A stretch of 64,000 nucleotides of DNA, taken from assembly GCA_003225175.1 (NCBI GenBank), contig QIBA01000056.1:23790-87789 (forward strand). The letters are read 5' to 3'. Of this stretch, positions 1 through 57,725 are shown piece by piece. Below the pieces are notes generated by a model that did not search any database, was not told where the DNA came from, and saw only the letters and a list, made by a program, of their open reading frames with translations. Position numbers and translations under genes: made by a program. Source of the DNA: Acidobacteriota bacterium (GTDB lineage: Bacteria > Acidobacteriota > Terriglobia > Terriglobales > Acidobacteriaceae). The first letter of the stretch is position 1. Each line of letters begins with the position of its first letter.

Positions 1-244
1 AGGAACCGCGGCTTACGCCACCCAGCTATGTATTTTGTTTTGCGGGAGCGCCGAGGAATCGGCTAGTACGACCGAAGCGACGCCCTATAGCAACCGCGCC
101 AACGTTCTGGTAACGGTTGCCCGCTTAGCGTTTTAATTGTGAAATCCGCCAATTCGGGCGTCCTTTCGTAAGAAGATAATTCAAGATGCCATGAGTGCGA
201 GATTTTTGCAAGACCAAATTGAACGGAAGAAAGGCGAACGCGAA

Positions 245-535
245 GGTCACGAAGTCAAAAGAAAAGGTCACAAAGAAAGCTTCGTGACCTCATCTGTTTC
301 CTTCGTGACCTTCGTGTTCGCTCCTGGTTTTGAAGTACTCAATCTCCCCCATGAGACAGCGCCGCCGTCCGCTCCAGCTTTTCTCAGGAAAACGCGCGGC
401 CATCGATCGCGCGCTTGATGGTCTTGAATAGCACCGCTGAGAGCACCTGGCGGTACGTGAAGCGCTGGATCCACATATCCGCCAGGAGCCAATAATCTTC
501 GTGCTGTCGCGGATCGCGGCGTTCTAACGCAGATG
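245..535. repeat. Direct repeat copy A (~290 bp). Truncated duplicate of the last ~195 bp of the 1380..4820 gene plus ~95 bp of its downstream region
   Basis: Manual alignment of 245-535 with 1285-1575 gives ~17 mismatches over ~290 nt (~94% identity). Similarity stops abruptly at 535 and 1575. Confidence 0.8.
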
Positions 536-593
536 CCGACATTGATTTCGCCATCAACTAGTTGATAAACTGGTCTATGGAAAAGAAAGCACA

Positions 594-836
594 ATGACTA
601 CCGTAGGCGCCTTTGAGGCAAAAACAAAGCTGAATGCTCTTCTCAAGAAAGTTGCAAAAGGGGAGACGATTCAGATCACTCTCCGCGGCGTTCCGGTGGC
701 GAAGCTTGTTCCTGCCGGTTCTGAGGAGGCGCAAGATCCGCGCGACATCGTGCGTGACATCCGCGCGCTCAGAAAAGGCGTGACGCTGGGAAAAATACAG
801 ATCCGGGATTTAGTCAGGGAGGGGCGACGACATTAG
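594..836 (+). CDS. Type II antitoxin, Phd/YefM (VapB-like) family
   Basis: 80-aa protein (MTTVGAFEAKTKLNALLKKV...) typical of prevent-host-death antitoxins. Sits immediately upstream of a PIN-domain ORF. Confidence 0.75.
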   Translation: MTTVGAFEAKTKLNALLKKVAKGETIQITLRGVPVAKLVPAGSEEAQDPRDIVRDIRALRKGVTLGKIQIRDLVREGRRH

Positions 837-852
837 GCACACCAAGAGGCTG

Positions 853-1254
853 GTGCTTGACGCGTCGGTCGCCGTCGCTTGGTGTTTTGCAGACGAGGCT
901 ACCTCCTTTACCGACGGAATTCTTGACCTGCTGGCAAACGGAACGACGGTGATGGTCCCGGCGCTTTGGCCGCTTGAGGTGTCGAATGCCATATTGAGCG
1001 CCGAACGCAAGAAGCGGCTTACGGTGGCGCAGGCTACGGCATTTCTTCGTCGCGTGTCGGGACTTCCGATCTCACTCGACGCGATGCCGCTGGGGCATGC
1101 CTTCAGCGAAGTTCTCTCTGTCGCACGGCAGCACCAGCTTACGGCATACAACGCTGCATACTTGGAACTCGCACTTCGCCAAGACCTTCCCCTGGCCACT
1201 CTCGACGAGCCCCTTCGACGTTCCGCGCGGGCTGCCGGCGTGGCGCTGATGTAG
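853..1254 (+). CDS. vapC: PIN-domain ribonuclease toxin VapC
   Basis: 133-aa PIN-like ORF starting with GTG at 853, 17 bp after the antitoxin stop. Classic two-gene TA arrangement. Confidence 0.7.
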   Translation: MLDASVAVAWCFADEATSFTDGILDLLANGTTVMVPALWPLEVSNAILSAERKKRLTVAQATAFLRRVSGLPISLDAMPLGHAFSEVLSVARQHQLTAYNAAYLELALRQDLPLATLDEPLRRSARAAGVALM

Positions 1255-1284
1255 GTCAACCCCCGCTGAACGAGGCGAACACGA

Positions 1285-1575
1285 ACGTCACGAAGTCAAA
1301 AGAAAAGGCCACAAAGAAAGCTTCGTGACCTCATCTGTTTCCTTCGTGAGCTTCGTGTTCGCTCCTGGTTTTGAAGTACTCAATCGCCTCCATGAGACAG
1401 GGCCGCCGTCCGCTCCAGCTTTTCCCAGGAAAACGCGCGGCCATCGATCGCGCGCTTGATGGTCTTGAACAGCACCACTGAGAACACCTGGCGGTAGGTG
1501 AAGCGCTGGATCCAGATGTCGGCGAGGAGCCAATAATCTTCGTGCTGGCGTGGATCGCGGCGTTCCAGGGCGAAG
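1285..1575. repeat. Direct repeat copy B (intact copy, continuous with the EPS synthase gene 3' end)
   Basis: Same alignment as copy A. This copy runs uninterrupted into the 1380..4820 reading frame. Confidence 0.8.
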
Positions 1576-4500
1576 GCTAGTGATGACGCGAGGAAATCGA
1601 TGATCAGGAAGCTGACGAAATAGATCACCAGCTTCTGGAAGGTTGCGGGATTGGCGGCGTAGGGATGGAAGTGGCGATCGATCAGATACCAGACTGCGCT
1701 TACGATGAACATTACATCGATCAGCGGCGAGACCAGTGGAAGCATGATCTGGAAGATGACGATGTTGGGGAGCGCGAACCAGCCTAGCGCGCCGCGGCGG
1801 AGCAAAGCTCCACGGTTTTTCCAGACGGCCTGGAGAATGCCGAACGACCAGCGGAAGCGTTGGCGCATCAGGCCGCGGGCGCTTACCGGGGCTTCGGTGT
1901 AGGCTAGCGCGCGGTCTTCGTAGATGACGCGGTAGCCGCTGCGCAGGATATTCATTGTGAGATCGGCGTCTTCGGCTACGGTGATGGCGTGATAGCCGCC
2001 GGCTTTCTTCACGATCTCGGTGCGCCATGCGCCCAGTGCGCCGGGGACGACCGTGACGGCGCCGAGCAGGTCGAGCGCGCGGCGCTCGAAGTTCTGGCTG
2101 GTGATGTACTCGAGAGCCTGCCAGCGCGTCCAGATATTCACGCGATTTCCCACTTTGGCATTGCCGGCTACGGCGCCGATGCTGCGATCGGCAAAATGCG
2201 GAATCAGGCGGGCGATGGCTTCGCGGGCGATTACCGTATCGGCGTCGATGCCGATGTAGAAATCTTCGGTCACCTGCTCGAGGCCGTAGTTCAGGGCTTC
2301 AGCTTTGCCGGAATTGGGCTTGGTGAGAACTACTACTTTCCCGGCGCTAATTTCATTTTGGAACTTGCTGGTGGCGATCTCGAGCGTCCGATCCTTCGAG
2401 CCGTCGTCAATGACGATCACGCGCAGGTTGCGATAGCTCGACGCCAGCACCGAGCGAATCGTGCGCTCGATGACTTTTTCTTCGTTATACGCGGGGATCA
2501 ACACTGCGACCGCCGGCCTGAAGGCGGGATCGAGGTTTTGCGACGACGAGCCCCGAATGCGGTCGATGGTGGCGAGCGCGCCAATAATAAGGAGGCGTCC
2601 GGTCATGAGGATGTCGCCGAGGAAGAAGATCATCTGCACGCCGATGAGGACGATGCTGAACATCCAGAAGGCCAGGTTATCGACGCGCGCTGCCCACACT
2701 TCGCGCGGCGTGGTGAGCGGCGGCATCACCTGGGCGCGGGTCTGGTCGATGAGTTTCGAAACGGGAACGATCTCGTAGCCGCGGGCGCGGATGCCGTCGA
2801 TGATCAGCGGGAGGGCTCTCACGGTCTGCGAGCGGTCTCCGCCGCCGTCGTGAAGAAGAATGATGTTGCCCTTGTCGAGATCTTTGAAGACGTTTTCGGC
2901 GATCTCGGCTGCGCTGTAACGCGGGCTTAGCGACCAGTCGCTGGGGTCGATCTTGTCGCCCACGGTGATGTATCCCATGTCCTGGGTGAGCTCGAGCGGC
3001 TTGACTTCGTCGGCGGTGTCGGGCTCCTGGTCGATCGAGTAGGGCGGGCGGAAGAAGATCGGCTTTACGCCGAGCTTCGCAGCGAATAAGCGCTCGGTAA
3101 CGTTGATTTCCTTTTCGAAACGCCACGTGGAGATTTCGCTGATGTTGGGATGCGTGAGCGTGTGGTTGCCGATCTCGTGGCCCTCGTCGTTGATGCGCTT
3201 TACCAATCCGGGATCGTTCTCGGAGGGAATGCCGATGAGGAAGAATGTGGCGGGCGCGTGCTTGCGCCTGAGTATGTCGAGTATCTGCGGGGTGTAGGTT
3301 GCGTCGGGACCATCGTCAAAGGTGATCGCGATCTTCTTCTCTTTATAACCGTAAGCTTCGAGTTGATAGGGATTCGGCAGCCTGGTGAAGTGCTCGTCGG
3401 TGACGAGTTCCGTATCGGGATCGACCGTCACCACGCGCTTGCCCGGCGAGGGACGCTGCATGATGCGCAGGATCTCGCCCTGTCCTTCGATGGAAACATC
3501 CGGACCAGGGGGAACTTCGGCGAGTTTGGTTGCGGGATCGGAGGCGCGAGGCTTGTCCCAGATCTCCCAAAGTGAACGATCTTCGGAGCCGAGGCGCCAC
3601 AGCGCAAATGTCCGGATGCCGAGATTGCGCGCGGCGCGCATTTGATTCAACGCGGTGACAGCGTCGAGAAACCAGATCTGATGCGTGGTGCCGTCATCTT
3701 CGTCATACGCGAAGTGGGGATTCAGTGAATCGGAATCGAGATCGATAGGCGTTTCGGATTCGGCGGAACGAATCCACGCATCCTGCACGGAGAGGTTGCA
3801 GACGTTGGAGTGAGTGCCTTCAGGACACTCGACCGGCTTGTTGCCCCACTCGTATCCGTAATTTCCGATGGCAACGATGAGTTTGTCTTTGGGAATAACT
3901 TTCAGCGCCTTCTGAATGTTGCCGACAAAGAAGCTGTGACTGGCGACCGGTCCGGCTTTGCTCTCCGACTGGTGCTCGTCGTAATTCATAAGGATGAGGC
4001 CATCGGAGTTGTCGGCGAGGTACTTGTAGTTGAAGTCGTCGTCATCGGCGGGGACGTTGATGTACATCTTCAGTCCGCGGGAGTGGAGGTCGGCGGCCAT
4101 CTCGCCAATTAGCGCGTTGAAGCCGGGCTGAGCGGTGCGGGGAAAGTCCTCAAAGTCGACGGAAACGCCCTTGAACTTGGCGTCGGAAGAGAGAAAAGTG
4201 AGCAGTTGATGGCGGAAATTTGCGCGTCCATCGGCGTTATCGAAGAAGTCTCCGACGTTGTGAAGCCATTTTCCCGAAACGGGATCAAAGTTATTGACCA
4301 GCGGAAAGACCTCGACGTCCGCCTTGGTTTGGCGAATTAGCGGCATCACCTGGTCGTCAACCTGGTGAATTGAAGTGCCGCTAACGACGTCGAACATCTC
4401 GTTTGTGAGCGCGTCGGAGCCTTGCATGCGTCCGTCGGGCGTCAAAACGTGCAGCCATTCGGGGTATAAAAGGTCGATTTGACGAAGATATTCCTTCAGT

Positions 4501-4820
4501 GAAGAGTAACTACCTTTGTCCCAGGTGACGTAAAAGGCTGCGCGTAAGCCTTCATCTTCGTTTAATGGAACCTGGGAAGGCGGCTTTTTGGTCTTGCGAT
4601 GCGATCCGTGAGCGGCTCCAGCATGCTTTTTAGTGTCGCGCACAGGCTTATAAGCGCGCTTGATTTCCGGCCAAATCGTCTGCGGTAAGGCTTCAGAACG
4701 CAGCGCTGTGTACATAAAAACGGCGGCGACAAGCGTTATTACGAGCCCGGAAAGGCGCAAAAGCAGGCGCAGATTACGCCATCGCTTGAGTTGTGGGTCG
4801 TAAAAAACCGGCTTGGCCAT
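1380..4820 (-). CDS. Multidomain exopolysaccharide synthase. N-terminal TM anchor, GH18-like (beta/alpha)8 domain, CE4 NodB-type polysaccharide deacetylase, TM segments, processive family-2 glycosyltransferase (PgaC/NodC/chitin-synthase-like) with C-terminal TM channel region
   Basis: CE4 motifs TFDDGP, GNHTLTHP, FFRPPY, IILLHDGGG. GT2 motifs VIVIDDGS, GIDADT, AEDADL, QRFRWSFG (QxxRW). N-terminal domain has YVTWD...SVDFEDF resembling the GH18 DxDxE region. Hydrophobic helices at N-terminus, between CE4 and GT2, and at C-terminus. Confidence 0.85.
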   Translation of the reverse strand: MAKPVFYDPQLKRWRNLRLLLRLSGLVITLVAAVFMYTALRSEALPQTIWPEIKRAYKPVRDTKKHAGAAHGSHRKTKKPPSQVPLNEDEGLRAAFYVTWDKGSYSSLKEYLRQIDLLYPEWLHVLTPDGRMQGSDALTNEMFDVVSGTSIHQVDDQVMPLIRQTKADVEVFPLVNNFDPVSGKWLHNVGDFFDNADGRANFRHQLLTFLSSDAKFKGVSVDFEDFPRTAQPGFNALIGEMAADLHSRGLKMYINVPADDDDFNYKYLADNSDGLILMNYDEHQSESKAGPVASHSFFVGNIQKALKVIPKDKLIVAIGNYGYEWGNKPVECPEGTHSNVCNLSVQDAWIRSAESETPIDLDSDSLNPHFAYDEDDGTTHQIWFLDAVTALNQMRAARNLGIRTFALWRLGSEDRSLWEIWDKPRASDPATKLAEVPPGPDVSIEGQGEILRIMQRPSPGKRVVTVDPDTELVTDEHFTRLPNPYQLEAYGYKEKKIAITFDDGPDATYTPQILDILRRKHAPATFFLIGIPSENDPGLVKRINDEGHEIGNHTLTHPNISEISTWRFEKEINVTERLFAAKLGVKPIFFRPPYSIDQEPDTADEVKPLELTQDMGYITVGDKIDPSDWSLSPRYSAAEIAENVFKDLDKGNIILLHDGGGDRSQTVRALPLIIDGIRARGYEIVPVSKLIDQTRAQVMPPLTTPREVWAARVDNLAFWMFSIVLIGVQMIFFLGDILMTGRLLIIGALATIDRIRGSSSQNLDPAFRPAVAVLIPAYNEEKVIERTIRSVLASSYRNLRVIVIDDGSKDRTLEIATSKFQNEISAGKVVVLTKPNSGKAEALNYGLEQVTEDFYIGIDADTVIAREAIARLIPHFADRSIGAVAGNAKVGNRVNIWTRWQALEYITSQNFERRALDLLGAVTVVPGALGAWRTEIVKKAGGYHAITVAEDADLTMNILRSGYRVIYEDRALAYTEAPVSARGLMRQRFRWSFGILQAVWKNRGALLRRGALGWFALPNIVIFQIMLPLVSPLIDVMFIVSAVWYLIDRHFHPYAANPATFQKLVIYFVSFLIIDFLASSLAFALERRDPRQHEDYWLLADIWIQRFTYRQVFSVVLFKTIKRAIDGRAFSWEKLERTAALSHGGD

Positions 4821-4914
4821 GCGGAATTAGCGCCCGAGCTGCTAAGCTTTTCAGCTTCTAAGCGTTGTTTATGTCACGAAAAGTGCGCCTGGAAGATGTC
4901 AATTTCGCTGTTTA

Positions 4915-4953
4915 AAGCTTAGCAGCTTAGAGGCTTAGGAGCTTAGCAGCTTG
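4915..4953. repeat. Tandem 8-bp repeats containing GCTTAG (4.5 copies) running into the TTG start of the 4951 gene. Two inverted CTAAGC copies at 4842-4847 and 4858-4863 lie just upstream of the divergent EPS synthase start
   Basis: Read directly: aGCTTAGcaGCTTAGagGCTTAGgaGCTTAGcaGCTTg, and gCTAAGCttttcagcttCTAAGCg. Confidence 0.7.
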
Positions 4954-6330
4954 TTTTCGCGCAACAAACGGTACTTTTTAGTCCTTATTCTGCTGGGTTT
5001 AGCGCTGCGCGGATACTTCCTTCACTGGCATTTTCTCTTCCAGGGCGACTCATTAGTGTATGGCGATTTGGCCAAAAACTGGCTTCTACATGGCGTTTAT
5101 GGCGTCACGGACAGCGGGCAAGTGGTGCCGGTGGATATCCGAATGCCGGGATATCCAGCGTTTTTGGCGGCGATTTTCCGCTTATTTGGAGTTGAACACT
5201 ACGGCGCAGTAGTGCGGGTGCAGGTCGGAATCGACCTCTTTACGTGCTTTTTGATTGCGGCAGGAGCGCGCAGATTGTGGTCTGAGCGCGCGGGAAAAGT
5301 CGCTTTTGCGCTGGCGGCGCTGTGTCCATTTACCGCAAATTACGCCGCTACGCCTCTAGTAGAGACCTTAGCGATCTTTTCTGCGGCGTTTGCGCTGTTT
5401 TTTGCGCTGCGTGCAGTGCAGAAAATGCGCGCTGCGCCGTCCTGGGACGTCGCGCATTCGTTCGCGGTTGCCGACTGGATCCTTTCCGGATTGGGAATTG
5501 CAGTGAGTATTTATCTGCGTCCAGATGGCGGGCTACTGCTCCTAGCAATCGCTTTGTACCTTCTTTGGACGGCAATTTCGGCGCGGGAAATGGAATTTGT
5601 GTGGGTTGGCGTGCTGCTGGGAGTCGTTTCTTTGCTTCCATTGTTGCCTTGGACGCTGCGAAATTGGCGCACATTACAGCAAATCGAGCCATTAGCGCCC
5701 TTTTACGCGGAAATGCCGGGCGAATACGTGCCCAAAGGATTCAATCGCTGGACGAAAACCTGGATCGTCGACTTCATATCCGTCATGAATGTGTACTGGA
5801 ATGTGTCGGCGGAAGGTCCGGGAGAAGCGGTTGATATCAGCAATATCCCTGCTCGAACCTACGATAATCCAGCGCAAAAGCAGCGTACGGAGCAGCTTTT
5901 CGCTCAATACAATGAGGCTTTGACACTGAGTCCCGAAATGGATCGAGCTTTTGCCGAGCTTGCAGATACGCGTATTCGTGAGCGTCCCTTGCGATATTAC
6001 GTAGCGCTGCCGCTGGCAAGATTGGCGGATATGTGGCTGCGTCCGCGGACAGAGATGCTGAATCTGCAGCTTGATTGGTGGAACTGGGAGGATGTTCCGC
6101 AGGAATCAGCGATATCGGTGGCACTCGCGTTGCTGGACGTCTTCTACATCGTCGCCGCGTTGATGTCAGTGCGGCGCAAACTGCCGGGCTGCGGAATGTT
6201 ATGGATCTTGATCGTGTGCCGCTCAGCGCTGCTGGCGACACTTCCTAATCCTGAACCGCGGTACACGCTGGAGTGCTTTCCGGCTTTGCTGATGTTGGCG
6301 GGGGTCGGCTTGGCAAGAAAGACTGATTAA
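4951..6330 (+). CDS. Polytopic membrane glycosyltransferase, GT-C fold (ArnT/PMT, GT39/GT83-like)
   Basis: 459 aa with ~10 predicted TM helices and an N-terminal loop ...RGYFLHWHFLFQGDSLVYGDLAKNW... resembling the acidic first-loop motif of ArnT/PMT-type transferases. TTG start. Confidence 0.5.
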   Translation: MFSRNKRYFLVLILLGLALRGYFLHWHFLFQGDSLVYGDLAKNWLLHGVYGVTDSGQVVPVDIRMPGYPAFLAAIFRLFGVEHYGAVVRVQVGIDLFTCFLIAAGARRLWSERAGKVAFALAALCPFTANYAATPLVETLAIFSAAFALFFALRAVQKMRAAPSWDVAHSFAVADWILSGLGIAVSIYLRPDGGLLLLAIALYLLWTAISAREMEFVWVGVLLGVVSLLPLLPWTLRNWRTLQQIEPLAPFYAEMPGEYVPKGFNRWTKTWIVDFISVMNVYWNVSAEGPGEAVDISNIPARTYDNPAQKQRTEQLFAQYNEALTLSPEMDRAFAELADTRIRERPLRYYVALPLARLADMWLRPRTEMLNLQLDWWNWEDVPQESAISVALALLDVFYIVAALMSVRRKLPGCGMLWILIVCRSALLATLPNPEPRYTLECFPALLMLAGVGLARKTD

Positions 6331-6355
6331 CGTTGGTTAGGTCGTTCCAGCAGTC

Positions 6356-6661
6356 TTAATCCGCGACTGGCCGATCCGACATGCGGAATTGCGTTCGGAA
6401 ATGCTCGGAGAGCAGGCCGATGGCATCCCGATTGGCGTCGGCACCGGTCTGCACCAGATATTTCATGGCTTCGACGAGCAATTTCTGGCCCTGAATGTAG
6501 CGTCTATCACTGATGCGCGGAGTGCGGCGCCGCTTCGGGTCGGGGACTACGGGGAGGGTAAATAGTCTGGCCAAGCTCGATTCCTCAAATATGCGGGAGT
6601 GGATGATGAGAGTGTTAGGAGTCAAAAACTCCATCTTCCGTTGCCCAGTATAGGTGGGCAT
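6356..6661 (-). CDS. Hypothetical small protein
   Basis: 101-aa ORF in an otherwise unassigned gap. No recognizable motif. Confidence 0.3.
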   Translation of the reverse strand: MPTYTGQRKMEFLTPNTLIIHSRIFEESSLARLFTLPVVPDPKRRRTPRISDRRYIQGQKLLVEAMKYLVQTGADANRDAIGLLSEHFRTQFRMSDRPVAD

Positions 6662-6778
6662 CTACTCGGATGAAAGAGACTTTTTGTGAAGTAACTGTCA
6701 GGTAACGCTCATTAAAACAACGCGCAGTGAATACTGCAGTCCGGAGGACCAACCTCCAATTGAGATTTGTGTGACTGT

Positions 6779-7552
6779 TTACTTTCCTTTAACTGTCTTG
6801 ACGCTTCCAGAAGTATGCAACTTGAAAGCATCGTCAGGAACTTTGCCGTTCAGCTTGATATTGGTGTAGTGCGCAATGCGATAGTCGCCAGAAGGCTCCA
6901 AGAACTGCTGTTTCAATGAGATGCCGCGCGGCGCGTCAATCCAGATGACGATCTGGCTGAACATATTTTTGACGTTCGGCGCTTTCGGGGCCAGCTCCAG
7001 CTTGGCGGTTTTCACGCCATCCACATCTTCGTCACCGCCGAACTTCACGTCGAATTGCTTGAGCAGGTCGTGTCCGCCTCCTCCAAAGCCGAGTACTAGG
7101 AAGCTTTGAAACTGGTCGCGATTCTTGCCCGCGTCGTATTCGTTTATCTGCTGGATCCTTGGCTGATAGAGCCGAACCTTGCCGTCGGCGTAAAGTACAT
7201 ACTTCTGTTCCGGCGACTGAATGTTGGCCATCATTTGTGTGTCGCCTTTGCCGGTGCGCCGATAATAGACTTTCCCTTTCTGGGTATCGGTCTCGTTCAC
7301 GACTTTCTGGTATTGATCCCAAACAAAGTCCGCCTCTGCATTACGGAACTGTCCCGACGCCGTATCCATCTGCTTTAGCACAGTTTCAAGTCGAGAATTA
7401 TGGTCAGCCGCTCCGGCGCTCCTCGTTTGTGCGAAAGCAGGGAGACACGAAAGAATCGCAAGCATCAGAGTGCCCGCAAGCAGGATTTCGCGTAGGTGCG
7501 CCAGTGCTGTGCAGCAAAGATGAGTATGAACGGGATGACGCACGATGCGCAT
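6779..7552 (-). CDS. LolA-like outer-membrane lipoprotein carrier/sorting family protein (secreted)
   Basis: Signal-peptide-like MLAILSCLPAFAQ (true start probably internal, near 7465) followed by a LolA-fold-like beta-rich sequence. Confidence 0.55.
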   Translation of the reverse strand: MRIVRHPVHTHLCCTALAHLREILLAGTLMLAILSCLPAFAQTRSAGAADHNSRLETVLKQMDTASGQFRNAEADFVWDQYQKVVNETDTQKGKVYYRRTGKGDTQMMANIQSPEQKYVLYADGKVRLYQPRIQQINEYDAGKNRDQFQSFLVLGFGGGGHDLLKQFDVKFGGDEDVDGVKTAKLELAPKAPNVKNMFSQIVIWIDAPRGISLKQQFLEPSGDYRIAHYTNIKLNGKVPDDAFKLHTSGSVKTVKGK

Positions 7553-7602
7553 GACTCTCCTCTTAAAGGTCTAACCCGAAGAAGCTCTGTTCGATTCGGA
7601 GT

Positions 7603-7899
7603 TTACAGGCGGCGTGCCCAGACCCGATAACCGGTGACCTTTCCCGAATTGTCGCGCAAGGCCTCGTAGCGCGTGATCTCAATGTTTCCGGCAATCGGCG
7701 TCAGGGTTTCCTGAAGCGCCTTTTGCGCATCGGATTCGCTGGCAGCGACGCCCGACGCGTTTAACTCATAGACAAAAGCATCAGGGCCGGTGGAGCGAAC
7801 AACAATCTCGTTGGGATGCAGGCGCAGATAGTTGGGGCTGTCCTTGAAGATACTGTGCGGGGTAAGAAAGATGAAGGCGAGGATGACAGTGACCATCAC
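7603..7899 (-). CDS. Hypothetical small membrane-anchored protein
   Basis: 98 aa with one N-terminal hydrophobic helix. No motif recognized. Confidence 0.35.
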   Translation of the reverse strand: MMVTVILAFIFLTPHSIFKDSPNYLRLHPNEIVVRSTGPDAFVYELNASGVAASESDAQKALQETLTPIAGNIEITRYEALRDNSGKVTGYRVWARRL

Positions 7900-8245
7900 G
7901 TCGTAGTGAAATCCGCCGCGCGGGTGTGTCCACAGAATGTAGCTCTTGATGGTCTGACCGGGAGTCAGGAGATGTTTCCTCTATGGATTAGTGTAGAACC
8001 GGGTAGCTGAGGCTGGCAATCCGGCAGAACTCTCAGACTCTCGTGCTCGAGCTAATCGCTCAAAGCCACTCGGCCAAACCTTTAAATCCAGCAGCGCGGG
8101 CCGAGGAATGAGCAGTGCTGCAGATATCTGCTTCGCTCCTTCTACTCTGGATTTTCCATGTCATTGGCCCAGTTTCGCGTGCTAAACTGGGACCCTTAGT
8201 TCCCGGCCCAGCCTTGTCTTGGAGCCCGGTCTCTTCGTCTAGCGA

Positions 8246-8737
8246 TTGAAAGTTTTTCTGATTTTCCTCTGGCCGGGAAAGCAGAATCGAATTGTGAAAC
8301 GCAAGAATGGCGGCAAGATCCTCGTCTCGATCTGCTGCGGAGTGTTAGTAGGTGCAGCTGTAGGAGCCATCCACTGGGCGATCGTTCCTCATGAACGTGA
8401 GCTGATAACGCACATCTTTCTTGCAGACCTGGTAGCGGCGCTGAGCACGATGATCGTTTGCCTGGCGATCCAGCTACGGCAGGAAGAAGTCCATTTCGCC
8501 AGCGCCATGTCGCGCGCCGCTATCGTTTCAGAATTGAACCACCACGTAAGAAATGCGGTATTTCCGCTGTGCCTCGCAGTGCAGAAGTCCGGGGACAAAG
8601 ACGCCTCTCAGCTCGCTAATGAAGCCGTAGAGCGCATTAACGTCGCCCTCAAAGAAGCGACGGCCGATGCCATTTCGGGACGCGCGAGCTACGCCGAAGA
8701 GGCGGGAGCGAAGAACGGGAGTCTGCTCATACACTGA
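8246..8737 (+). CDS. Small membrane protein with a HisKA-like (DHp) H-box but no ATPase domain
   Basis: Two TM helices, then AAIVSELNHHVRNAVFPL resembling the xxSHELRNPL phospho-acceptor box. The protein ends ~60 aa later, with no HATPase_c. Stop overlaps the start of the next gene (ATGA). Confidence 0.5.
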   Translation: MKVFLIFLWPGKQNRIVKRKNGGKILVSICCGVLVGAAVGAIHWAIVPHERELITHIFLADLVAALSTMIVCLAIQLRQEEVHFASAMSRAAIVSELNHHVRNAVFPLCLAVQKSGDKDASQLANEAVERINVALKEATADAISGRASYAEEAGAKNGSLLIH

Positions 8738-9147
8738 TGTTTCGTGCCCTTGTAGTCGACGACGAATCTTCAATTTTGGGGCTTCTCAGAACCGTTCTGG
8801 AACTCGCCGCGTTCCATGTTGAAACTGCTACTTCCGCCAAACTAGCGACTACGCTCCTTGCTCAAGACAGCTTCGAAGTCGTTCTTACCGACATCCGAAT
8901 GGAGACTCCGACGGCAGGCTTCGATGTGATTCGAGCGGCTCGCAAGCTTCAATCCCGGCCTGCGATCGCAATCCTCACCGCGCATCCAATCTCACCTGCT
9001 GAATGGAAACCTTCCGGAGCAGATGCACTTTTCATAAAAGGCAGCGATCTGATCAATCTTCCCGACAAGCTAAAGACGCTGATGAAGCAACGGGCGCAAA
9101 GGGAGACAGCTTCAGAACCTGTTCTGCGGCGCTCCGTGAATCAATAG
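8737..9147 (+). CDS. Single-domain response regulator (CheY-like receiver)
   Basis: VVDDE acidic pocket, phospho-acceptor D in VVLTDIRM, T in ILTAH, K in FIKG. No output domain. Confidence 0.85.
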   Translation: MFRALVVDDESSILGLLRTVLELAAFHVETATSAKLATTLLAQDSFEVVLTDIRMETPTAGFDVIRAARKLQSRPAIAILTAHPISPAEWKPSGADALFIKGSDLINLPDKLKTLMKQRAQRETASEPVLRRSVNQ

Positions 9148-9206
9148 ACTTTCCAAGCAAGCATTTGTGGCGCGGCGGCTTCGGCTGTGGATGCCATTCG
9201 CGCATT

Positions 9207-10508
<1,302 letters not shown>

Positions 10509-10595
10509 TCAAGTTTGGTCAGGAGGACTGGGGACTCGGGTGATCGGGCCATCGGGTGCCCGATCACCCGATTCTTAATTTACAATTCGCTCGCA

Positions 10596-12245
10596 ATGAA
10601 ATCTCGATCTCGTCTTTTCCTGGCTCTCAGCTTCTTCCTAATCGCTCCCGCCTTTGGCTCCGCCTATCAGAATCGTCCCAAACTGATCGTAATAATCATC
10701 ATCGATCAATTCCGCGGCGACTATCTCGAACGCTACTACAATCGCTTTGGCGAAGGCGGCTTCCGCCTGCTGATGGATCACGGCGCCAATTTCACTGACT
10801 GCCACTATGACTACGCAAATACCCACACCGCTCCTGGACATGCAACCTTGTTTACCGGAGCGTACTCGGATGGACATGGCATTGGCGGGAACGAGTGGTG
10901 GGATCCGGCGCTGCGCAAAGTCGTAACCTCGGTCGAAGACAGTCGTTACCAGACGCTTAAGCCCGGTGGATCAAACGAGACCGGAGTCTCGCCGCATAAT
11001 TTGCTTGCCGACACAATCGGCGACGAGCTGCGACTCGCCACTGCTGGGAAGTCGCGTGTCTTCGGAATTTCGCTCAAAGACCGCGCCGCTGTTCTTCCTG
11101 CCGGCTACTCCGGCAGCGCCGCCTATTGGATTGATCACGAAGATGGCGCTTGGGTGAGTTCGAGCTACTACATGAAGTCTCTGCCACCGTGGATTGTGGC
11201 ATTCGAAGCGAGCGGCCCAACCAAAAAATATTTAGATAAAGAGTGGAAGGGAGCAGATGGTTCGGTTCTCGACAGCACTGCGCCCGCCATGAACGCTGCC
11301 GGACAACGACTCGGATTTTACGATCTGGTGGGCAAGACTCCGTTTGCCAACGATTATGAGTTCGACTTCGCCAAAGAACTTATCCGGCAGGAAAAGCTGG
11401 GCAGTGGATCGACGACGGATTTCTTGAGCGTCAGTTTGTCGGCAAACGATATCCTTGGACATCGCGTAGGACCTGACAGTCCCAAAATGGAAGCGATGGC
11501 TCTGGCGCTTGATCGCGAACTGGCTGAGTTCTTCGCGTTTCTCAAGCAGCAGGTAGGCCTCGAAAACGTTTGGATCGCTCTCTCCGCTGATCATGGCATC
11601 GCGCCGCTTGTGGAAAGCGCACAGACAATGCATGTTCCGGCAGCACGGCTGAACTCAGCCGGCATGGCTCAGGAAATTAATTTGAAACTGGCAGAGCGGT
11701 TTCCTCAAGCCACAGGCGGACCACGCTGTTTGCGACCTGAAGACGCCAAGCTCTGGCATCGCGAGAACACGCCGGACTTCGTAGCATCAATAAGCTGGCC
11801 GATTGCTTATCTTTGCAAAGACGATTTCGACGCTCTAAAGATCAATGAAGCGCAAGCCGAGCAAACAGTGGGCGAGGTTTTCAAGCAGCTCGGCTCCTTG
11901 CCGGCCGTTTATACACGGACGCAGCTCACGGAGGGCGCGGTCCCTCAGACCTCTTATGGGAAGCAGTACCTGCACAGTCGCGCAGAATACGGCGGGTGGT
12001 ATGTATTAGGCGAGCTGCCGCCCTTCGTCGTAGGCAACGCCACCGGGACTGACCACTCTACGCCTTACAGCTACGACACTCATGTCCCACTCGCGTTCTA
12101 CGGCACTCCCTTCAAGCCGGGAACATATCGTTCCCATGCGGAACCAGTGGACATGGTTTCGACGTTTAGCACGCTGCTCGGCATCGAGCGGCCGACGCAC
12201 TCGATTGGTAGAGTGCTCACGGAGGCCCTGAGCACGTCGCGATGA
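10596..12245 (+). CDS. Alkaline-phosphatase-superfamily (type I phosphodiesterase/nucleotide pyrophosphatase-like) secreted protein
   Basis: Signal peptide MKSRSRLFLALSFFLIAPAFG, then IIIIDQFRGDYL...HYDYANTHTAPGHATLFTG metal-site motifs. Start chosen at ATG 10596 (the listed ORF extends to 10464, overlapping serS). Confidence 0.7.
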   Translation: MKSRSRLFLALSFFLIAPAFGSAYQNRPKLIVIIIIDQFRGDYLERYYNRFGEGGFRLLMDHGANFTDCHYDYANTHTAPGHATLFTGAYSDGHGIGGNEWWDPALRKVVTSVEDSRYQTLKPGGSNETGVSPHNLLADTIGDELRLATAGKSRVFGISLKDRAAVLPAGYSGSAAYWIDHEDGAWVSSSYYMKSLPPWIVAFEASGPTKKYLDKEWKGADGSVLDSTAPAMNAAGQRLGFYDLVGKTPFANDYEFDFAKELIRQEKLGSGSTTDFLSVSLSANDILGHRVGPDSPKMEAMALALDRELAEFFAFLKQQVGLENVWIALSADHGIAPLVESAQTMHVPAARLNSAGMAQEINLKLAERFPQATGGPRCLRPEDAKLWHRENTPDFVASISWPIAYLCKDDFDALKINEAQAEQTVGEVFKQLGSLPAVYTRTQLTEGAVPQTSYGKQYLHSRAEYGGWYVLGELPPFVVGNATGTDHSTPYSYDTHVPLAFYGTPFKPGTYRSHAEPVDMVSTFSTLLGIERPTHSIGRVLTEALSTSR

Positions 12246-54308: not shown

Positions 54309-57300
54309 CTAGAACGTCAGCCGCATCCCAAGCTGGATCTGCCGCGGTGGTCCCGCCGTAGTCGGATGTCCGTAGTCACCACTGGAGATGTTGGTGTTAT
54401 TCACTAGCTCCGAGGTTTGCGAACTAAACCGGAAATTCGTGTGATTGAAAGCGTTTACGACGTCTGCGCGAAATTGCAGCTTCAGATCCTCTCTGCCGAG
54501 TCCAAATTCCTTGCGCAGAGAGAAATCCCATTTGTACAGACCCGGTCCGCGCACCAGACCAGCGCCGCTGTTGCCCAAGCGGCCGTCAGGAGCCGGAGCA
54601 AATGCAGCGCTATTAAACCATTGCGTCGCGTTGGGCCCGTCGATCTGAACTGGCCCACCAAGGTAATCAGCACGGCGCCGCGAGGACGAGGGCAGGGTCA
54701 AACCAGCAAATGTGCTATTGCCGGTCACGGTGAAGGGCCCGCCAGTCTGTAGCTGGGTCAAACCGCCAAGTTCCCAGCCTCCCAGCGTCTCTCCTAGAAA
54801 ACCGCTCTCACTGCGGAAGGACGGCAAGCGATAATTGAACGTAGTAACGAAAATGTGGCGGTGATCGAAGAGAGCCGGACCATAGTTCAAAAAGCGCATG
54901 GTGGCATCTTCGATATTGTCGCTGGCACCGCTGTTGCGAACGTCTTCATTGCCGCCCCCGCTGTCGGTGAGATTTTTCGACCAGGTGTAACTGCCAGTCA
55001 GCGTGAGGTCTCCTTTACGCTTCGTCGCATAGATCTGCAAAGCGTTGTAGTTGGAGATGGCATCGCTCAGGAACATGTTGATGGTGGAGTAGCCCTTATA
55101 TGCCCTGAGCGCATCCAGAGCCGTAGCCTTTTGTGTTGATGGCAGCGTCTGATTGGCTAGCATGGTTGCGATGCTTGGCATGTTGATGTCGGGTTTGCGC
55201 ATCAAGTGTCGCGCCTGATTGCCAACATATGCGACTTCAAGAAAAACATCAGACGGCAATTCACGCTGCACACTCAGGCTATAAGTCATGCTGTAGGCCT
55301 GCTTCAGATTTGGATCGATGGCCGAAATGCTCAATCCGCCTGCCTTTGGCGCCGCTCCACCGGCGGGATTGGAAAGACTTGCTGTATTGAAGACCGCACT
55401 GCTTGAGAATGGCGGATTGCCGACCTCATCGAAGATCATGTTGCCTTCGGGTGTGTCATAGAAAAGGCCGATACCGCCGCGAACTGAAGTCTTGTTGTCG
55501 TTGAAGGGTTGGAGAGCAAAACCAAAACGCGGCGCCCACGTGCTCTGACCTTGATAGAGCCCGCGCGTTGCGCCATCCGGAATTGCACTGGGTGCGCCAC
55601 CGCTGCCGGCTCGGATGAGGCCATTGAAGGGATTGCCGCCCTTCGTCGTATCGATGGTGCCGTCAAGCTTGAGTGTCACCGCCTTTGATGGATCGTAGAG
55701 CGCAGGATCGAAGTTCGTCAGGTTATTTGCCTGCGTGTACCATGGGACGAAGTACTGATAACGGACTCCCACCTCCAGGCTGAGATTGCGCAGCACCTTC
55801 CAGTTGTCAGTCACGTAAGCGTGATATTGCGTAAAACGGAAGTGCCCGACGGGATCGTCGGAGGCTTCTTCATATTTATTGAAGTTACCCATCAAAGCAT
55901 CGGCGAGCGAATTGCCGGATGAATTGGAGCCGGTCCCGGTAAAGGTGATCGCCCCTGCATACAGCGAACGCGCGTTCTGATCTTTGCGATTCCGAATGAC
56001 CAGCACTCCGGTCTTCAGCGTGTGTGCCCCGTGGCTCCAAGTGAGGTTGTCCCCCGGCGCTATGTCGGTTGTCGGAGAGAGCAACGCGTGTGACTGGCCC
56101 TTGAGAGTCTGAAAGGTGGACATCATGATGTCGGGAATGCTGTTGCGAAAGCGTCCCCCACCGTTGGGGAACAACTGCGGAAATACGAAACCGTAGGTGC
56201 TGCGCTTCCACGAGTCACCTACCGGATTCAGGCGTTGCCCATTCCAGGAAGCATTGATCTTGGCTTCGTTCACCAGCGTCGGCGTGATCGTCCAGGTGTG
56301 CGCTACTTGGTAGCTCGTGCCCGGACGCCTGCGGTCTTCAGGGCAGCTTGGTACGTCGGTAGCGCAGGAAAACCCGCTGGGCAGCAGGATGCTGAACTCG
56401 TCATGAATGTAGCGCAGATAAATGTTGTGCTTCTGCGTCAGCGAGAGATCGACGCGCGCGAAGTCCTCTCGGGAGTCGAACGGTTGAGCGTTCTGATAGA
56501 TTGTGTTGCTCCCCGTGCCGGTGTTAGTGAACGAGGCTGCCTGCTGTTCCATCGCGCCATAAAGCTTTGCGATTGCTGCTCCATCTGCGGTGATGCATTG
56601 CGGGCTGAGTACGTTATTCGTAATTGTGCAGCCGGCGGGAGCACTTGCGGGCTTGGTCAGCTTTAAGGTGTTGTACTTCCAATCGCGGAAGTCGCCAGAG
56701 AGCTCGGCCGTCGTAGGCATCGTCACCTTGACCGGAGCCGTCGAGGAGCGCAAGTACTTCCACTGCTCGCCGACGTAGAAGAAGAGCTTGTCGCGCTTAA
56801 TGGGACCACCTAACTGCCAGGTGGGGTTGTTGAAGCGCAGCGGCGGCTTGATCGCCGCTCCGCTGACTTGATCCCGGGAGAAGTAGTTCACTGCATCCAG
56901 ATAATCGTTGCGAAAATATTCGGAAATACCGCCGTGAAGACGGTTGCTTCCACTCTTTGTCACTACGTTAACGGCGGCGCCGGCGGAGCGTCCGTACTCG
57001 GCGGAAAAATTGGAGGTTTTTACGCTTACCTCCTGGACGAAATCGAGGCCAACGTTGTTGATCAAACTGCCATTGGAACCTGAATCCAGATTGAAGCCGC
57101 CGTCCACGGTATGCAGGTTTTGATCGCTGCGGATGCCGTTGACCGAAAATGGGCTCGCTGTAAGACCAGTAGTAACCGCCATCTCGTCCTCATCCGTGAC
57201 CGCGGCACCCGGCATCAGCGTGACCAATTGCCCGTAGTTGCGGCCATTGAGCGGCAGGGTTTCCACCTGCTGCGCGTCCACAACCCGCGAGATCTCACCC

Positions 57301-57725
57301 GAAGTTGTGTTCACGGTCTCGCCTGTTCCCGTCACTTCAACGGTTTCGGTGACGGCGCCCGGCTTCAGGGTGAAGTCCACGGTCACGCGTGCATCGGGAT
57401 CGATGTGATAGCCAGTCCTTATTTCTCTGCCGAAGCTCTTTTGCTCTGCGGCCAGACTGTAATTTCCAACCGGGAGGTCGGTTACTACATAAAAGCCTCT
57501 GGCATCCGTTGTAACGGTGCGCGTGAGCCCAGTTCCCAAATTGACCACGGCGACTGTTACTCCGGGAATGGCCGCACCGGAAGTATCCACTACCGTTCCG
57601 GAGAAGCGGCCGGTGATGGTCATTTGCGCGGCCACGGAGCGTACTACCGCCATCCACGCAGCACCTGCCAACACACACGCAAGAACGCCACGCAGCGTTC
57701 TGGATTTCAAATCGATCGCTGACAT
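54309..57725 (-). CDS. TonB-dependent outer-membrane receptor (CarboxypepD_reg type), third copy
   Basis: 1138 aa. GTVVDTSGAAIPGVTVAVVNLGTGLTRTVTTDARGFY. Ends ...MRLTF. Confidence 0.9.
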   Translation of the reverse strand: MSAIDLKSRTLRGVLACVLAGAAWMAVVRSVAAQMTITGRFSGTVVDTSGAAIPGVTVAVVNLGTGLTRTVTTDARGFYVVTDLPVGNYSLAAEQKSFGREIRTGYHIDPDARVTVDFTLKPGAVTETVEVTGTGETVNTTSGEISRVVDAQQVETLPLNGRNYGQLVTLMPGAAVTDEDEMAVTTGLTASPFSVNGIRSDQNLHTVDGGFNLDSGSNGSLINNVGLDFVQEVSVKTSNFSAEYGRSAGAAVNVVTKSGSNRLHGGISEYFRNDYLDAVNYFSRDQVSGAAIKPPLRFNNPTWQLGGPIKRDKLFFYVGEQWKYLRSSTAPVKVTMPTTAELSGDFRDWKYNTLKLTKPASAPAGCTITNNVLSPQCITADGAAIAKLYGAMEQQAASFTNTGTGSNTIYQNAQPFDSREDFARVDLSLTQKHNIYLRYIHDEFSILLPSGFSCATDVPSCPEDRRRPGTSYQVAHTWTITPTLVNEAKINASWNGQRLNPVGDSWKRSTYGFVFPQLFPNGGGRFRNSIPDIMMSTFQTLKGQSHALLSPTTDIAPGDNLTWSHGAHTLKTGVLVIRNRKDQNARSLYAGAITFTGTGSNSSGNSLADALMGNFNKYEEASDDPVGHFRFTQYHAYVTDNWKVLRNLSLEVGVRYQYFVPWYTQANNLTNFDPALYDPSKAVTLKLDGTIDTTKGGNPFNGLIRAGSGGAPSAIPDGATRGLYQGQSTWAPRFGFALQPFNDNKTSVRGGIGLFYDTPEGNMIFDEVGNPPFSSSAVFNTASLSNPAGGAAPKAGGLSISAIDPNLKQAYSMTYSLSVQRELPSDVFLEVAYVGNQARHLMRKPDINMPSIATMLANQTLPSTQKATALDALRAYKGYSTINMFLSDAISNYNALQIYATKRKGDLTLTGSYTWSKNLTDSGGGNEDVRNSGASDNIEDATMRFLNYGPALFDHRHIFVTTFNYRLPSFRSESGFLGETLGGWELGGLTQLQTGGPFTVTGNSTFAGLTLPSSSRRRADYLGGPVQIDGPNATQWFNSAAFAPAPDGRLGNSGAGLVRGPGLYKWDFSLRKEFGLGREDLKLQFRADVVNAFNHTNFRFSSQTSELVNNTNISSGDYGHPTTAGPPRQIQLGMRLTF

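Follow-up and report, generated by a model that had tools for sequence, protein, structure and literature searches.

The window analyzed here, a stretch of 64 kb of acidobacterial DNA, encodes a large fused polysaccharide synthase next to a membrane glycosyltransferase of the GT-C superfamily, and the conservation of this arrangement across genomes supports the view that the two proteins are a functional pair. We propose, with a probability of roughly 55%, that they constitute a two-gene envelope polysaccharide module specific to Acidobacteriota, in which the GT-C protein most likely decorates the nascent polymer. Acidobacteriota rank amongst the most abundant bacteria in soil, where their surface polymers influence aggregation as well as carbon retention; to our knowledge, experimental work has covered hardly any of their polysaccharide machinery. 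The original prediction had described an exopolysaccharide locus of three genes, consisting of the fused synthase, the GT-C protein and a LolA-like protein. Its domain labels fit the profile matches of all three reading frames and the synthase/GT-C pair proved to be conserved, but the LolA-like gene lies outside the module (Table 1).

Table 1. Features of the synthase/GT-C locus and its surroundings (positions in the window; aa, residues of the synthase).
Feature	Position	Strand	Basis or remark
Synthase ORF, uninterrupted, 1146 aa	1380..4820	-	ORF call
N-terminal signal-anchor helix, aa 19-37	4710..4766	-	hydropathy scan; basic KRWRNLRLLLR before the helix
Predicted GH18-like (beta/alpha) barrel, about aa 94-420	3561..4541	-	PDB matches, PF00704 on homologues
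CE4 (NodB-type) metal-dependent deacetylase, aa 491-697	2730..3350	-	Pfam, PDB, motifs
Hydrophobic connector, aa 705-756	2553..2708	-	hydropathy peaks at aa 716-734 and 734-752
Processive GT2 catalytic domain, aa 759-1009	1794..2546	-	motifs, PgaC similarity
C-terminal transmembrane helices, about aa 1011-1125	1446..1790	-	hydropathy, helices in model
Terminator-like hairpin, 42-nt arms, just past the synthase stop codon	1275..1362	-	
Divergent intergenic region, 130 bp	4821..4950	.	
GT-C ORF, 459 aa, TTG start	4951..6330	+	ORF call
orf101, conserved 101-aa ORF between GT-C and LolA-like gene	6356..6661	-	
LolA-like ORF, 257 aa	6779..7552	-	ORF call
orf98	7603..7899	-	neighbouring block member
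Block of orf98, LolA-like gene and orf101, judged outside the module	6356..7899	-	co-conserved unit

The synthase belongs to the processive membrane GT2 synthases of the BcsA/PgaC/NodC/HAS type. Its GT2 domain displays the D, DxD, ED and QxxRW signatures together with the transmembrane helices of this group, and the corresponding motifs (DDGS805, DAD859-861, ED950-951 and QRFRW987-991) show no variation across six phyla. Over 242 aa the domain is 31% identical to E. coli PgaC (E 1e-36); the score against the PgaC_IcaA profile TIGR03937 is 179.2 bits, under the cutoff of 422.3, so that the protein is not assigned as an equivalog. The region C-terminal to the GT2 domain aligns to the membrane regions of BcsA and hyaluronan synthase in a comparison with the PDB, and its helices presumably form the translocation channel. 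Besides the GT2 families, Pfam assigns Polysacc_deac_1 to the synthase, with 113 bits for the CE4 domain. This domain is a member of the CE4/NodB-homology group: all five motifs, the Asp-His-His metal triad among them, are present and invariant (TFDDG 500-504, H553/H557 of HxxxH, R591-P-P-Y594, D625..W629 of DxxDW and H657-D658 of LHD), and its matches in the PDB are peptidoglycan and chitin deacetylases scoring at most 114 bits. Full-length homologues of the synthase number in the thousands at 93-58% identity, and full-length matches at 34-44% identity occur in six phyla.

The fusion postulated in the original prediction is real, yet it joins three predicted catalytic domains rather than two, the additional one being an N-terminal GH18-like domain. 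The best-scoring of its relatives in the PDB is B. subtilis YdhD (3cz8; 67 bits, aa 171-411), and further matches include 5jh8, YaaH and chitinase structures. PF00704 is found in precomputed annotations of many synthase homologues, while the Pfam GH18 match to the window's own protein falls short of E 0.01. From the GH18 signature DxxDxDxE only D222-x-E224 is kept, K217 and S220 replacing the first two Asp; D222 and E224 are invariant among the aligned homologues. Stand-alone N-terminal modules exist, for example in a locus where the module overlaps a shortened CE4+GT2 gene, which may reflect an assembly frameshift. The linker that precedes the barrel (aa 55-90) is basic, rich in Pro and Ser and poorly conserved.

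The signal anchor would place the GH18-like and CE4 domains in the periplasm, and we infer both that the connector takes the chain back to the cytoplasm and how many times the polypeptide passes the membrane. A structure model of the synthase, computed from an alignment of 14 sequences, was unfit for a fold search, for the topology or for a check of the GH18 barrel because of its pLDDT of 53; it was used for secondary-structure hints only, amongst them a long helix at aa 705-756. With this arrangement, the cytoplasmic PgaC-like GT2 domain would polymerize UDP-GlcNAc and the growing chain would thread through the helix bundle at the synthase's own C-terminus. Located on the same polypeptide, the CE4 domain in the periplasm could then partly de-N-acetylate the emerging chain, and the GH18-like barrel may bind or trim it, a role held in E. 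coli by the hydrolase half of PgaB. The product is thus envisaged most likely as a partially de-acetylated poly-GlcNAc. By analogy to Streptomyces MatB, a beta-1,6 linkage would be favoured, with beta-1,4 as the alternative; the linkage is uncertain because the CE4 and GH18-like domains resemble enzymes acting on beta-1,4-linked GlcNAc in peptidoglycan and chitin.

The second protein of the pair reaches 38.5 bits against the Pfam family PMT_2 (cutoff 26.1) and has the features of the GT-C superfamily, namely the membrane fold and an acidic residue that is conserved in extracytoplasmic loop 1. It is compact, with about 11-12 helices and no large soluble domain; helices 8 and 9 are separated by a poorly ordered stretch of only about 100 residues, and the chain ends after the last helix. 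Helix 1 is oriented N-in, as indicated by the basic N-terminus, and is followed by the invariant D33, which opens the first periplasmic loop. Invariance extends to R64, D95, E138 and R190-P-D-G193, and these residues, together with D33, are putative catalytic and phosphate-binding residues.

Such a protein could alternatively act in the manner of ArnT or LgmB, modifying lipid A or a different lipid of the envelope with a sugar, perhaps an amino sugar, and merely be co-regulated with the synthase in a surface-charge or biofilm programme. The GT-C protein does not group with ArnT (GT83), however: none of 31 members of its family matches the NCBIfam ArnT model, the C-terminal periplasmic domain is lacking, and arn genes as well as ArnC-, ArnD- and Lgm-type genes are missing nearby. 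A profile of the family finds no sequence relative among the solved GT-C structures in the PDB, ArnT included, and AglB and Pmt4 match the protein equally well. Since lipid modification would also leave the phylum-wide tight adjacency to one synthase unexplained, we consider it rather unlikely. A further alternative is that the protein is a PMT-like protein O-glycosyltransferase, acting on the periplasmic part of the synthase (e.g. the linker at aa 55-90) or on some other protein of the envelope. Assignment to PMT (GT39) is contradicted by loop 1, where D33-S34 takes the place of the Asp-Glu pair, and by the lack of a MIR match or any other acceptor-binding soluble domain; as the linker is in addition poorly conserved, protein glycosylation appears unlikely.

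The proposed module is supported by the genomic linkage of the two genes. Comparing synteny in relatives had been put forward together with the original prediction as a check, and synteny is indeed conserved for the synthase and the GT-C gene. The GT-C gene adjoins the synthase in 40 of 45 loci labelled as Acidobacteriota and in none of 38 loci from other phyla, where the fusion has no recurrent neighbour at all. In the reverse direction, of the 65 GT-C loci that extend 500 nt or more upstream, 62 carry the synthase beside the GT-C gene, leaving about 5% of GT-C orthologues without an upstream synthase (three loci); Chloracidobacterium, conversely, has the synthase and lacks the GT-C gene. The GT-C protein is specific to the phylum Acidobacteriota, and among the carriers of the pair is the culturable Bryocella elongata DSM 22489 (locus L023). 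Thirty-five pairs are divergent; in the same-strand arrangements the GT-C gene lies upstream of the synthase once and downstream of it twice, and adjacency is kept in Blastocatellia despite a rearranged gene order. Identities of the synthase and the GT-C protein co-vary between loci (Spearman 0.67, p 6e-6).

Neighbour clustering and Pfam annotation of 113 flanking proteins yielded no other conserved partner, and a search for further partners outside Terriglobia, in Blastocatellia and other phyla, likewise returned none. No donor-sugar gene is present among the conserved neighbours, the recurrent ones being housekeeping genes (pantothenate synthesis, cation efflux, TldD). Tight linkage would also be expected if the GT-C protein assisted the synthase structurally or allosterically, with no need for catalysis, comparable to PgaD, IcaD or MatA, and a small membrane partner is in fact required by PgaC, IcaA and MatB (PMC5972031; PMC4391728). 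Against this stand the invariance of the putative catalytic and phosphate-binding residues listed above and the existence of the fusion in other phyla with no conserved partner, and we judge a purely structural role to be very unlikely. Because the same synthase works in other phyla without the GT-C protein, the latter would serve an accessory step rather than polymerization.

In the window the two genes are divergent, as originally described, and separated by exactly 130 bp (4821-4950). This spacer contains an array of the 8-bp element AGCTTAGC at 4916-4952 with inverted copies at 4837-4866, which together make up an inverted repeat of 30 nt whose copies are separated by 47 nt. Clusters of AGCTTAGC also occur in the corresponding spacers of loci L001 and L002, are degenerate in L031 and are absent from more distant loci. 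A promoter scan of the spacer between the two genes gave no significant match, and an Rfam scan of positions 1-10600 detected no c-di-GMP riboswitch, the sole match being a spurious miRNA on the terminator hairpin. Co-expression of the GT-C gene with the synthase could be brought about by the shared spacer or, in Blastocatellia, by location on one strand.

The LolA-like gene was said to follow the GT-C gene and to be part of the locus. It is instead encoded on the minus strand and converges on the GT-C gene, and orf101 (6356-6661, minus strand) lies in between. Together with orf98 and orf101 it forms a co-conserved unit that is usually found after serS; elsewhere this block is located 0-6 kb from the pair or is absent, in GCA_035716645.1 the pair and the block reside on different contigs, and in L086-L088 the block occurs without the synthase. 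The encoded protein scores 27.6 bits against Pfam LolA (cutoff 23.6) and has a cleavable signal peptide ending AFA|Q, leaving a mature chain of about 215 aa. It resembles LolA in its Pfam score, the cleavable signal peptide, the size and the location near serS (lolA-rarA-serS in E. coli), but it stays below the cutoff of TIGR00547 (40.1 bits versus 112) and gives a weak profile match to E. coli LolA (hhalign, E 0.02); a lipoprotein-sorting role is putative. The possibility of a LolB-like lipoprotein was rejected because of the lack of conservation at Cys35 and the AFA|Q ending of the signal peptides.

The LolA-like protein might nevertheless be dedicated to the polymer as its periplasmic chaperone or export factor, given the hydrophobic cavity of the LolA fold and a distance of at most 5 kb from the GT-C gene in 20 of the 32 metagenome loci whose sequence extends far enough. 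The separate contigs in GCA_035716645.1, the occurrence of the gene without the pair in L086 and L087, the unrelated inserts that split it from the pair in L003 and L004, its convergent orientation and its invariable ties to orf98, orf101 and serS instead, which recall the E. coli gene order, make such a function extremely improbable. The gene is a bystander from a separate block and has no specific part in the synthase/GT-C module.

As noted before, the canonical partners of PNAG synthesis are absent from the neighbourhood: amongst the larger ORFs scanned in the 64 kb window (roughly at least 80 aa, with a threshold varying by region) none encodes a PgaA-like porin, PgaD, PilZ, GGDEF or EAL protein. 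Since the window stops only 1.4 kb past the 3' end of the synthase, absences on this downstream side were judged via related contigs, and none of these genes is called in the 3.6 kb past the window's left edge on near-identical contigs. Neither PgaA, PgaD nor c-di-GMP control genes are found in the flanks of related loci, and the locus is consequently not of the pgaABCD type. The idea that a minimal locus without porin and c-di-GMP module would be special does not hold; it is typical, as the fusion likewise occurs by itself in the 30 loci examined from other phyla and has a precedent in the Gram-negative PgaB-GT fusions, which Bundalovic-Torma et al. (2020) place in operons without pgaA and pgaD and for which they state that export and regulation must differ (PMC7112194). 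The three-domain synthase is a single-gene system that occurs widely in diderm bacteria, and no route by which its product could cross the outer membrane is known, a question already raised in a published survey.

In the proposed module, the GT-C protein would face the periplasm and use a polyprenyl-phosphate sugar produced elsewhere in the genome; no particular donor is indicated, because no donor-sugar synthase or flippase is encoded nearby. The most likely target to be decorated would be the nascent polymer leaving the synthase. Domain identities, motif conservation, the GT-C fold and the linkage statistics are observed, while the identity of the polymer, the topology, and the donor and acceptor of the GT-C protein are predictions. 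A more specific version, in which the GT-C protein gives the product of the porin-less synthase a new fate, for example by glycosylating or capping the chain and so keeping or anchoring it in the envelope, where it would form a chitosan-like layer in the periplasm or on the cell instead of a secreted exopolysaccharide, seems improbable; if true, it would represent an undescribed coupling of a synthase-dependent pathway to a polyprenyl-phosphate-dependent GT-C step. A partner gene conserved in one phylum only offers a concrete genetic handle on the accessory step, and a comparison of the polymer made with and without the GT-C protein could reveal what the latter adds and whether the polymer is exported.

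A literature search retrieved no precedent for a GT-C protein decorating a synthase-dependent poly-GlcNAc and nothing relevant on GT-C partners of PNAG-type synthases or on the GH18-CE4-GT2 architecture. The fused PgaB-GT clades resemble the synthase in being deacetylase-GT fusions without pgaA and pgaD, but differ in that a GH18-like domain and a GT-C partner are not reported in the portion of that study used here (PMC7112194). A close counterpart, from the one genus with known experiments on this family, is Streptomyces MatB (SCO2962), a CE4+GT2 fusion making PNAG that, like the synthase, combines an extracellular CE4 domain, a membrane segment and an intracellular PgaC-like GT2 domain in one polypeptide (PMC5972031). 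Set against this description, the synthase has the same CE4 and GT2 domains joined by a membrane segment, and in both proteins the CE4 domain resembles peptidoglycan and chitin deacetylases, the GT2 domain resembles PgaC and a porin is absent (PMC5972031). MatB is described with two domains only, whereas the synthase adds a fused N-terminal GH18-like domain; MatAB further contains a separate membrane protein, MatA, with no recognized domain, and no GT-C partner has been reported for it. Its host Streptomyces is monoderm, unlike the acidobacterial host.

The logic of polymerization, de-N-acetylation and a hydrolase-like domain is shared with E. coli PgaABCD and staphylococcal IcaADBC, the synthase corresponding to PgaC plus PgaB, although its locus lacks PgaA, PgaD and the link to c-di-GMP. 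PgaB itself is not an orthologue, since BLASTP aligns the TFDDG motif only (E 0.003). Moreover, PgaB is an outer-membrane lipoprotein with an N-terminal CE4 and a C-terminal GH153 domain, whereas in the synthase the order is reversed, the hydrolase is GH18-like, and a signal anchor with no lipobox tethers the protein to the inner membrane. On the side of the GT-C protein, the three-component systems GtrABC, CsbB-GtcA-YfhO, ArnC-ArnD-ArnT and Bordetella LgmABC use a GT-C enzyme to move a sugar from a polyprenyl-phosphate carrier onto an envelope polymer or lipid at the outer face of the inner membrane, and the Arn and Lgm systems unite a GT2 enzyme, a CE4-type deacetylase and a GT-C enzyme. Unlike in these systems, no flippase or donor synthase adjoins the synthase/GT-C pair, and whereas their GT2 component makes polyprenyl-phosphate sugars non-processively and has no QxxRW, the GT2 domain of the synthase carries the processive signature along with a helix bundle of the channel type.

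The membrane glycosyltransferase (GT-C) gene is the sole widely conserved neighbour of the three-domain synthase. We sampled five homologous-synthase look-ups together with 80 loci from a scan of species-representative genomes and analyzed them by tblastn, a GT-C HMM and all-against-all clustering of flanking ORFs. The GT-C gene was found at 40 of the 45 synthase loci labelled as Acidobacteriota; three of the remaining five lie on contigs too short to tell, L070 shows the downstream side only, and Chloracidobacterium (L042) represents a true absence. It also occurs at two loci with other phylum labels and acidobacterial-type sequences, and at none of the 38 loci of other phyla (0/38). These two, L010 and L030, are MAGs labelled Deferrimicrobiaceae and Verrucomicrobiia, and their pairs (58% and 44% identity) reflect either mis-binning or horizontal transfer. 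Around the synthase at 30 other-phylum loci, no Pfam family recurs among 113 flanking proteins (any family in at most two), and beyond Acidobacteriota the fusion amounts to a one-gene system.

The divergent arrangement of the two genes across 130 bp, as described in the original prediction, is exact in the window, and 35 pairs in the sample are divergent, their median spacing being about 165 nt. At the Blastocatellia loci, both genes lie on one strand, with the GT-C gene upstream of the synthase in L040 and downstream in L041 and L047; as these gene orders differ yet the genes stay adjacent, adjacency has survived rearrangement. Sequence identity of the one protein co-varies with that of the other (Spearman 0.67). 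In the converse test, which took the GT-C as the seed for scanning metagenomes, the synthase was found upstream in 62 of the 65 loci having at least 500 nt of upstream sequence and was missing there in L094, L138 and L156. The GT-C protein of the window is 100% identical to DMG62_16065 of an NCBI metagenome-assembled 'Acidobacteria bacterium', and the close relatives are all from Terriglobales.

Features of the window, in order of position
Feature	Position	Strand	Remarks
Left repeat copy	232-524		decaying duplicate with in-frame stop
MIR7696 match (rejected)	235-320
Phd/PIN toxin-antitoxin pair	594-1254		between the repeat copies
Right repeat copy	1273-1565		true synthase 3' end (last 61 codons) and terminator hairpin
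Synthase ORF	1380-4820	-	1146 codons, uninterrupted
Inverted motif copies	4837-4866		near synthase start
Tandem motif copies	4914-4952		4.6 copies, abutting GT-C start
GT-C ORF	4951-6330	+	459 codons, TTG start
orf101	6356-6661	-	101 codons
LolA-like ORF	6779-7552	-	257 codons
orf98	7603-7899	-
2-TM protein	8246-8737		H-box-like ELNHHVRN
Stand-alone receiver domain	8737-9147
Glucuronoxylan-utilisation region	~14000-46100
Third TonB-type barrel	54309-57725

Synteny with relatives thus holds for the GT-C gene and not for the LolA-like gene, which the original prediction had included in the exopolysaccharide locus as following the GT-C gene. It is convergent to the latter, with orf101, whose protein sequence is kept in relatives, in between, and it is present at just 17 of the 85 synthase loci. 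Among GT-C-seeded loci, 27 of the 51 whose downstream sequence reaches 1.5 kb or more have it, as do 20 of the 32 reaching at least 4.5 kb. It lies anywhere from directly adjacent to the GT-C gene to 4-6 kb away, and the inserts in between are unrelated, DUF3466 in L003 and a TonB-type barrel plus a sulfatase in L004. In GCA_035716645.1, contig DASTJH010000049 holds the pair, and the 10 kb around it contain no LolA; the LolA block is on DASTJH010000052. L086 and L087 carry the block without a synthase. Within the block, LolA always comes after orf98 and, as a rule, before orf101, and serS precedes the block wherever sequence extent allows, a proximity shared with the lolA-rarA-serS arrangement of E. 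coli. The protein has a type-I signal peptide (AFA|Q; the signal-peptide Cys of the window's copy is not conserved), scores above the Pfam LolA threshold and below the NCBIfam equivalog cutoff, and is named LolA or 'lipoprotein-sorting protein' by NCBI and JGI. We conclude that the LolA-like gene does not belong to the module and is a neighbour that Terriglobales have inherited. The proteins of orf98 (membrane-anchored) and orf101 are small, conserved and of no known family, and travel with it (window 6356-9147; L086-L088), as does, in close relatives, a divergent pair encoding a 2-TM protein and a receiver domain.

The predicted lack of an outer membrane porin or c-di-GMP module was borne out: no porin, PgaD, PilZ, GGDEF or EAL protein was found among the larger ORFs scanned in the window (roughly 80 aa and above) or in the left-flank contigs, and an Rfam scan of 1-10600 showed no c-di-GMP riboswitch. 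The absence is genuine, yet it is what the synthase family typically shows. Other window genes encode seryl-tRNA synthetase, a small two-component pair, a phosphodiesterase, assorted metabolism and a large glucuronoxylan-utilisation locus, including GH10, two GH3, two glucuronoyl esterases (one of them fused to GH67), a GDSL esterase, two LacI-type regulators, a ROK protein, a xylulokinase-like kinase, a xylose-isomerase-like protein and two CarboxypepD_reg/OMP_b-brl_4 TonB-type barrels.

At its 3' end the synthase gene carries one copy of a 293-nt direct repeat (94% identical) that flanks the toxin-antitoxin pair; in a strain variant (L171), the sequence departs from that of the window left of position 1440 and the synthase is 1152 aa long. 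These features suggest that an island inserted into the 3' end of the synthase gene and rebuilt that end through duplication. The proposed island would take in the BCS1-type AAA and TROVE/VWA genes that near-identical contigs show past the left window edge, where a toxin-antitoxin pair also lies. An Rfam hit to the plant miRNA family MIR7696 (35 bits, gathering score 83) is due to chance, the matched sequence being the duplicated terminator hairpin. The divergent spacer holds tandem copies of AGCTTAGC, which together with the inverted copies form a 30-nt inverted repeat (80% complementary, 47-nt spacer; -53 kcal/mol as a folded single strand, z -4.2); the tandem motif GCTTAGNNGCTTAG has no further occurrence in the 64 kb window. 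The cluster recurs in this spacer of the two closest relatives (L001, L002), is degenerate in L031, and is replaced in more distant loci by a TTGACC-N17-TAnGAT promoter-like element. The cluster may serve as a lineage-specific array for binding a regulator.

Searches of Pfam, NCBIfam and PDB identify three predicted catalytic modules in the synthase. A basic N-terminus and a single hydrophobic helix (aa 19-37) precede a GH18-like region, which matches B. subtilis YdhD (3cz8; 67 bits, aa 171-411), a chitinase-like protein (5jh8) and YaaH. The CE4 deacetylase (aa 491-697) is nearest to peptidoglycan and chitin GlcNAc deacetylases, and the GT2 domain, which starts at aa 759 after a hydrophobic connector and has more hydrophobic helices downstream, is nearest to PgaC/IcaA (179 bits, under the 422 equivalog cutoff; 31% identity to E. 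coli PgaC over 242 residues). In a full-length alignment with relatives from Cyanobacteria, Gamma- and Alphaproteobacteria, Gemmatimonadota, Bacteroidota and Bacillota (34-43% identity), the GH18-like D222-x-E224, the CE4 motifs TFDDG, H553/H557, RPPY, DxxDW and H657-D658, and the GT2 motifs DDGS, DAD, ED and QRFRW are invariant. Such invariance of every catalytic motif across phyla marks the synthase, as judged from its sequence, as an old, widespread and catalytically intact 'all-in-one' enzyme. Since its structure prediction was poor (pLDDT 53) and not used, we infer the topology from hydropathy, the positive-inside rule and domain requirements: N-in, with two periplasmic domains and a cytoplasmic GT2. 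In L173 (6001-9169 of the locus, on a 1.2-Mb contig), the N-terminal TM+GH18-like module has a 475-aa gene of its own, which overlaps a CE4+GT2 gene of 595 aa. This reflects a MatA/MatB-like split or else a frameshift in the long-read assembly; further copies of the module standing by themselves lie on 10-30 kb contigs.

The GT-C protein, with a good structure model (pLDDT 80, pTM 0.84; 31-sequence alignment) and no large soluble domain, is a genuine GT-C that falls in the Pfam family PMT_2. A profile search of solved structures found no relative by sequence, and NCBIfam returned no match for the window's protein and, for 17 of 31 relatives, weak matches to a Leptospira 'putative glycosyltransferase' family and nothing else. 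The protein cannot be assigned to ArnT, PMT or OST. None of the 31 family members matches ArnT, and a lipid A-type modification by the GT-C appears unlikely; protein O-glycosylation is somewhat less probable again. Invariant residues include D33-S34 directly behind the first helix (its basic N-terminus points to a cytoplasmic position), R64, P66-G-Y-P69, D95, E138, R190-P-D-G193 and a C-terminal NPEPRYTLE motif. This pattern is as expected for an active enzyme binding a polyprenyl-phosphate donor at the periplasmic face, and we regard a non-catalytic partner of the synthase as the most improbable of these alternatives.

In the best-supported reading, the synthase would polymerise GlcNAc in the cytoplasm and translocate the chain, its own periplasmic domains would de-N-acetylate and bind or trim it, and the GT-C would be a co-expressed accessory transferase working at the periplasmic face. 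Because its linkage to this one synthase is tight and phylum-wide, its substrate is probably tied to the synthase product, most simply the nascent chain; polymer linkage, donor and acceptor are what we infer. In L061, L066, L071, L079 and L080 (Sphingomonas, Gemmatimonadota), the three-domain synthase has an MprF-like lysyl-phosphatidylglycerol synthase no more than a few kb away, directly adjoining it in L066 and L080; both enzymes would raise the cationic character of the envelope.

We found no report of the GH18-like third domain or the Acidobacteriota-specific GT-C partner in the searchable literature. Mechanistically nothing is surprising so far, and the pair offers a tractable handle on the acknowledged question of how, or whether, porin-less systems export polymer. 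The fusion type without pgaA and pgaD is already known, and such partner absence is remarked on by Bundalovic-Torma et al. (PMC7112194) for Gram-negative PgaB-GT fusions. The sole characterised relative, Streptomyces MatB (CE4+GT2), makes PNAG (PMC5972031). The periplasmic half of the synthase is analogous, not orthologous, to PgaB: the alignment is limited to the TFDDG motif, the hydrolase-like domain comes from another family, and the domains stand in the opposite order.
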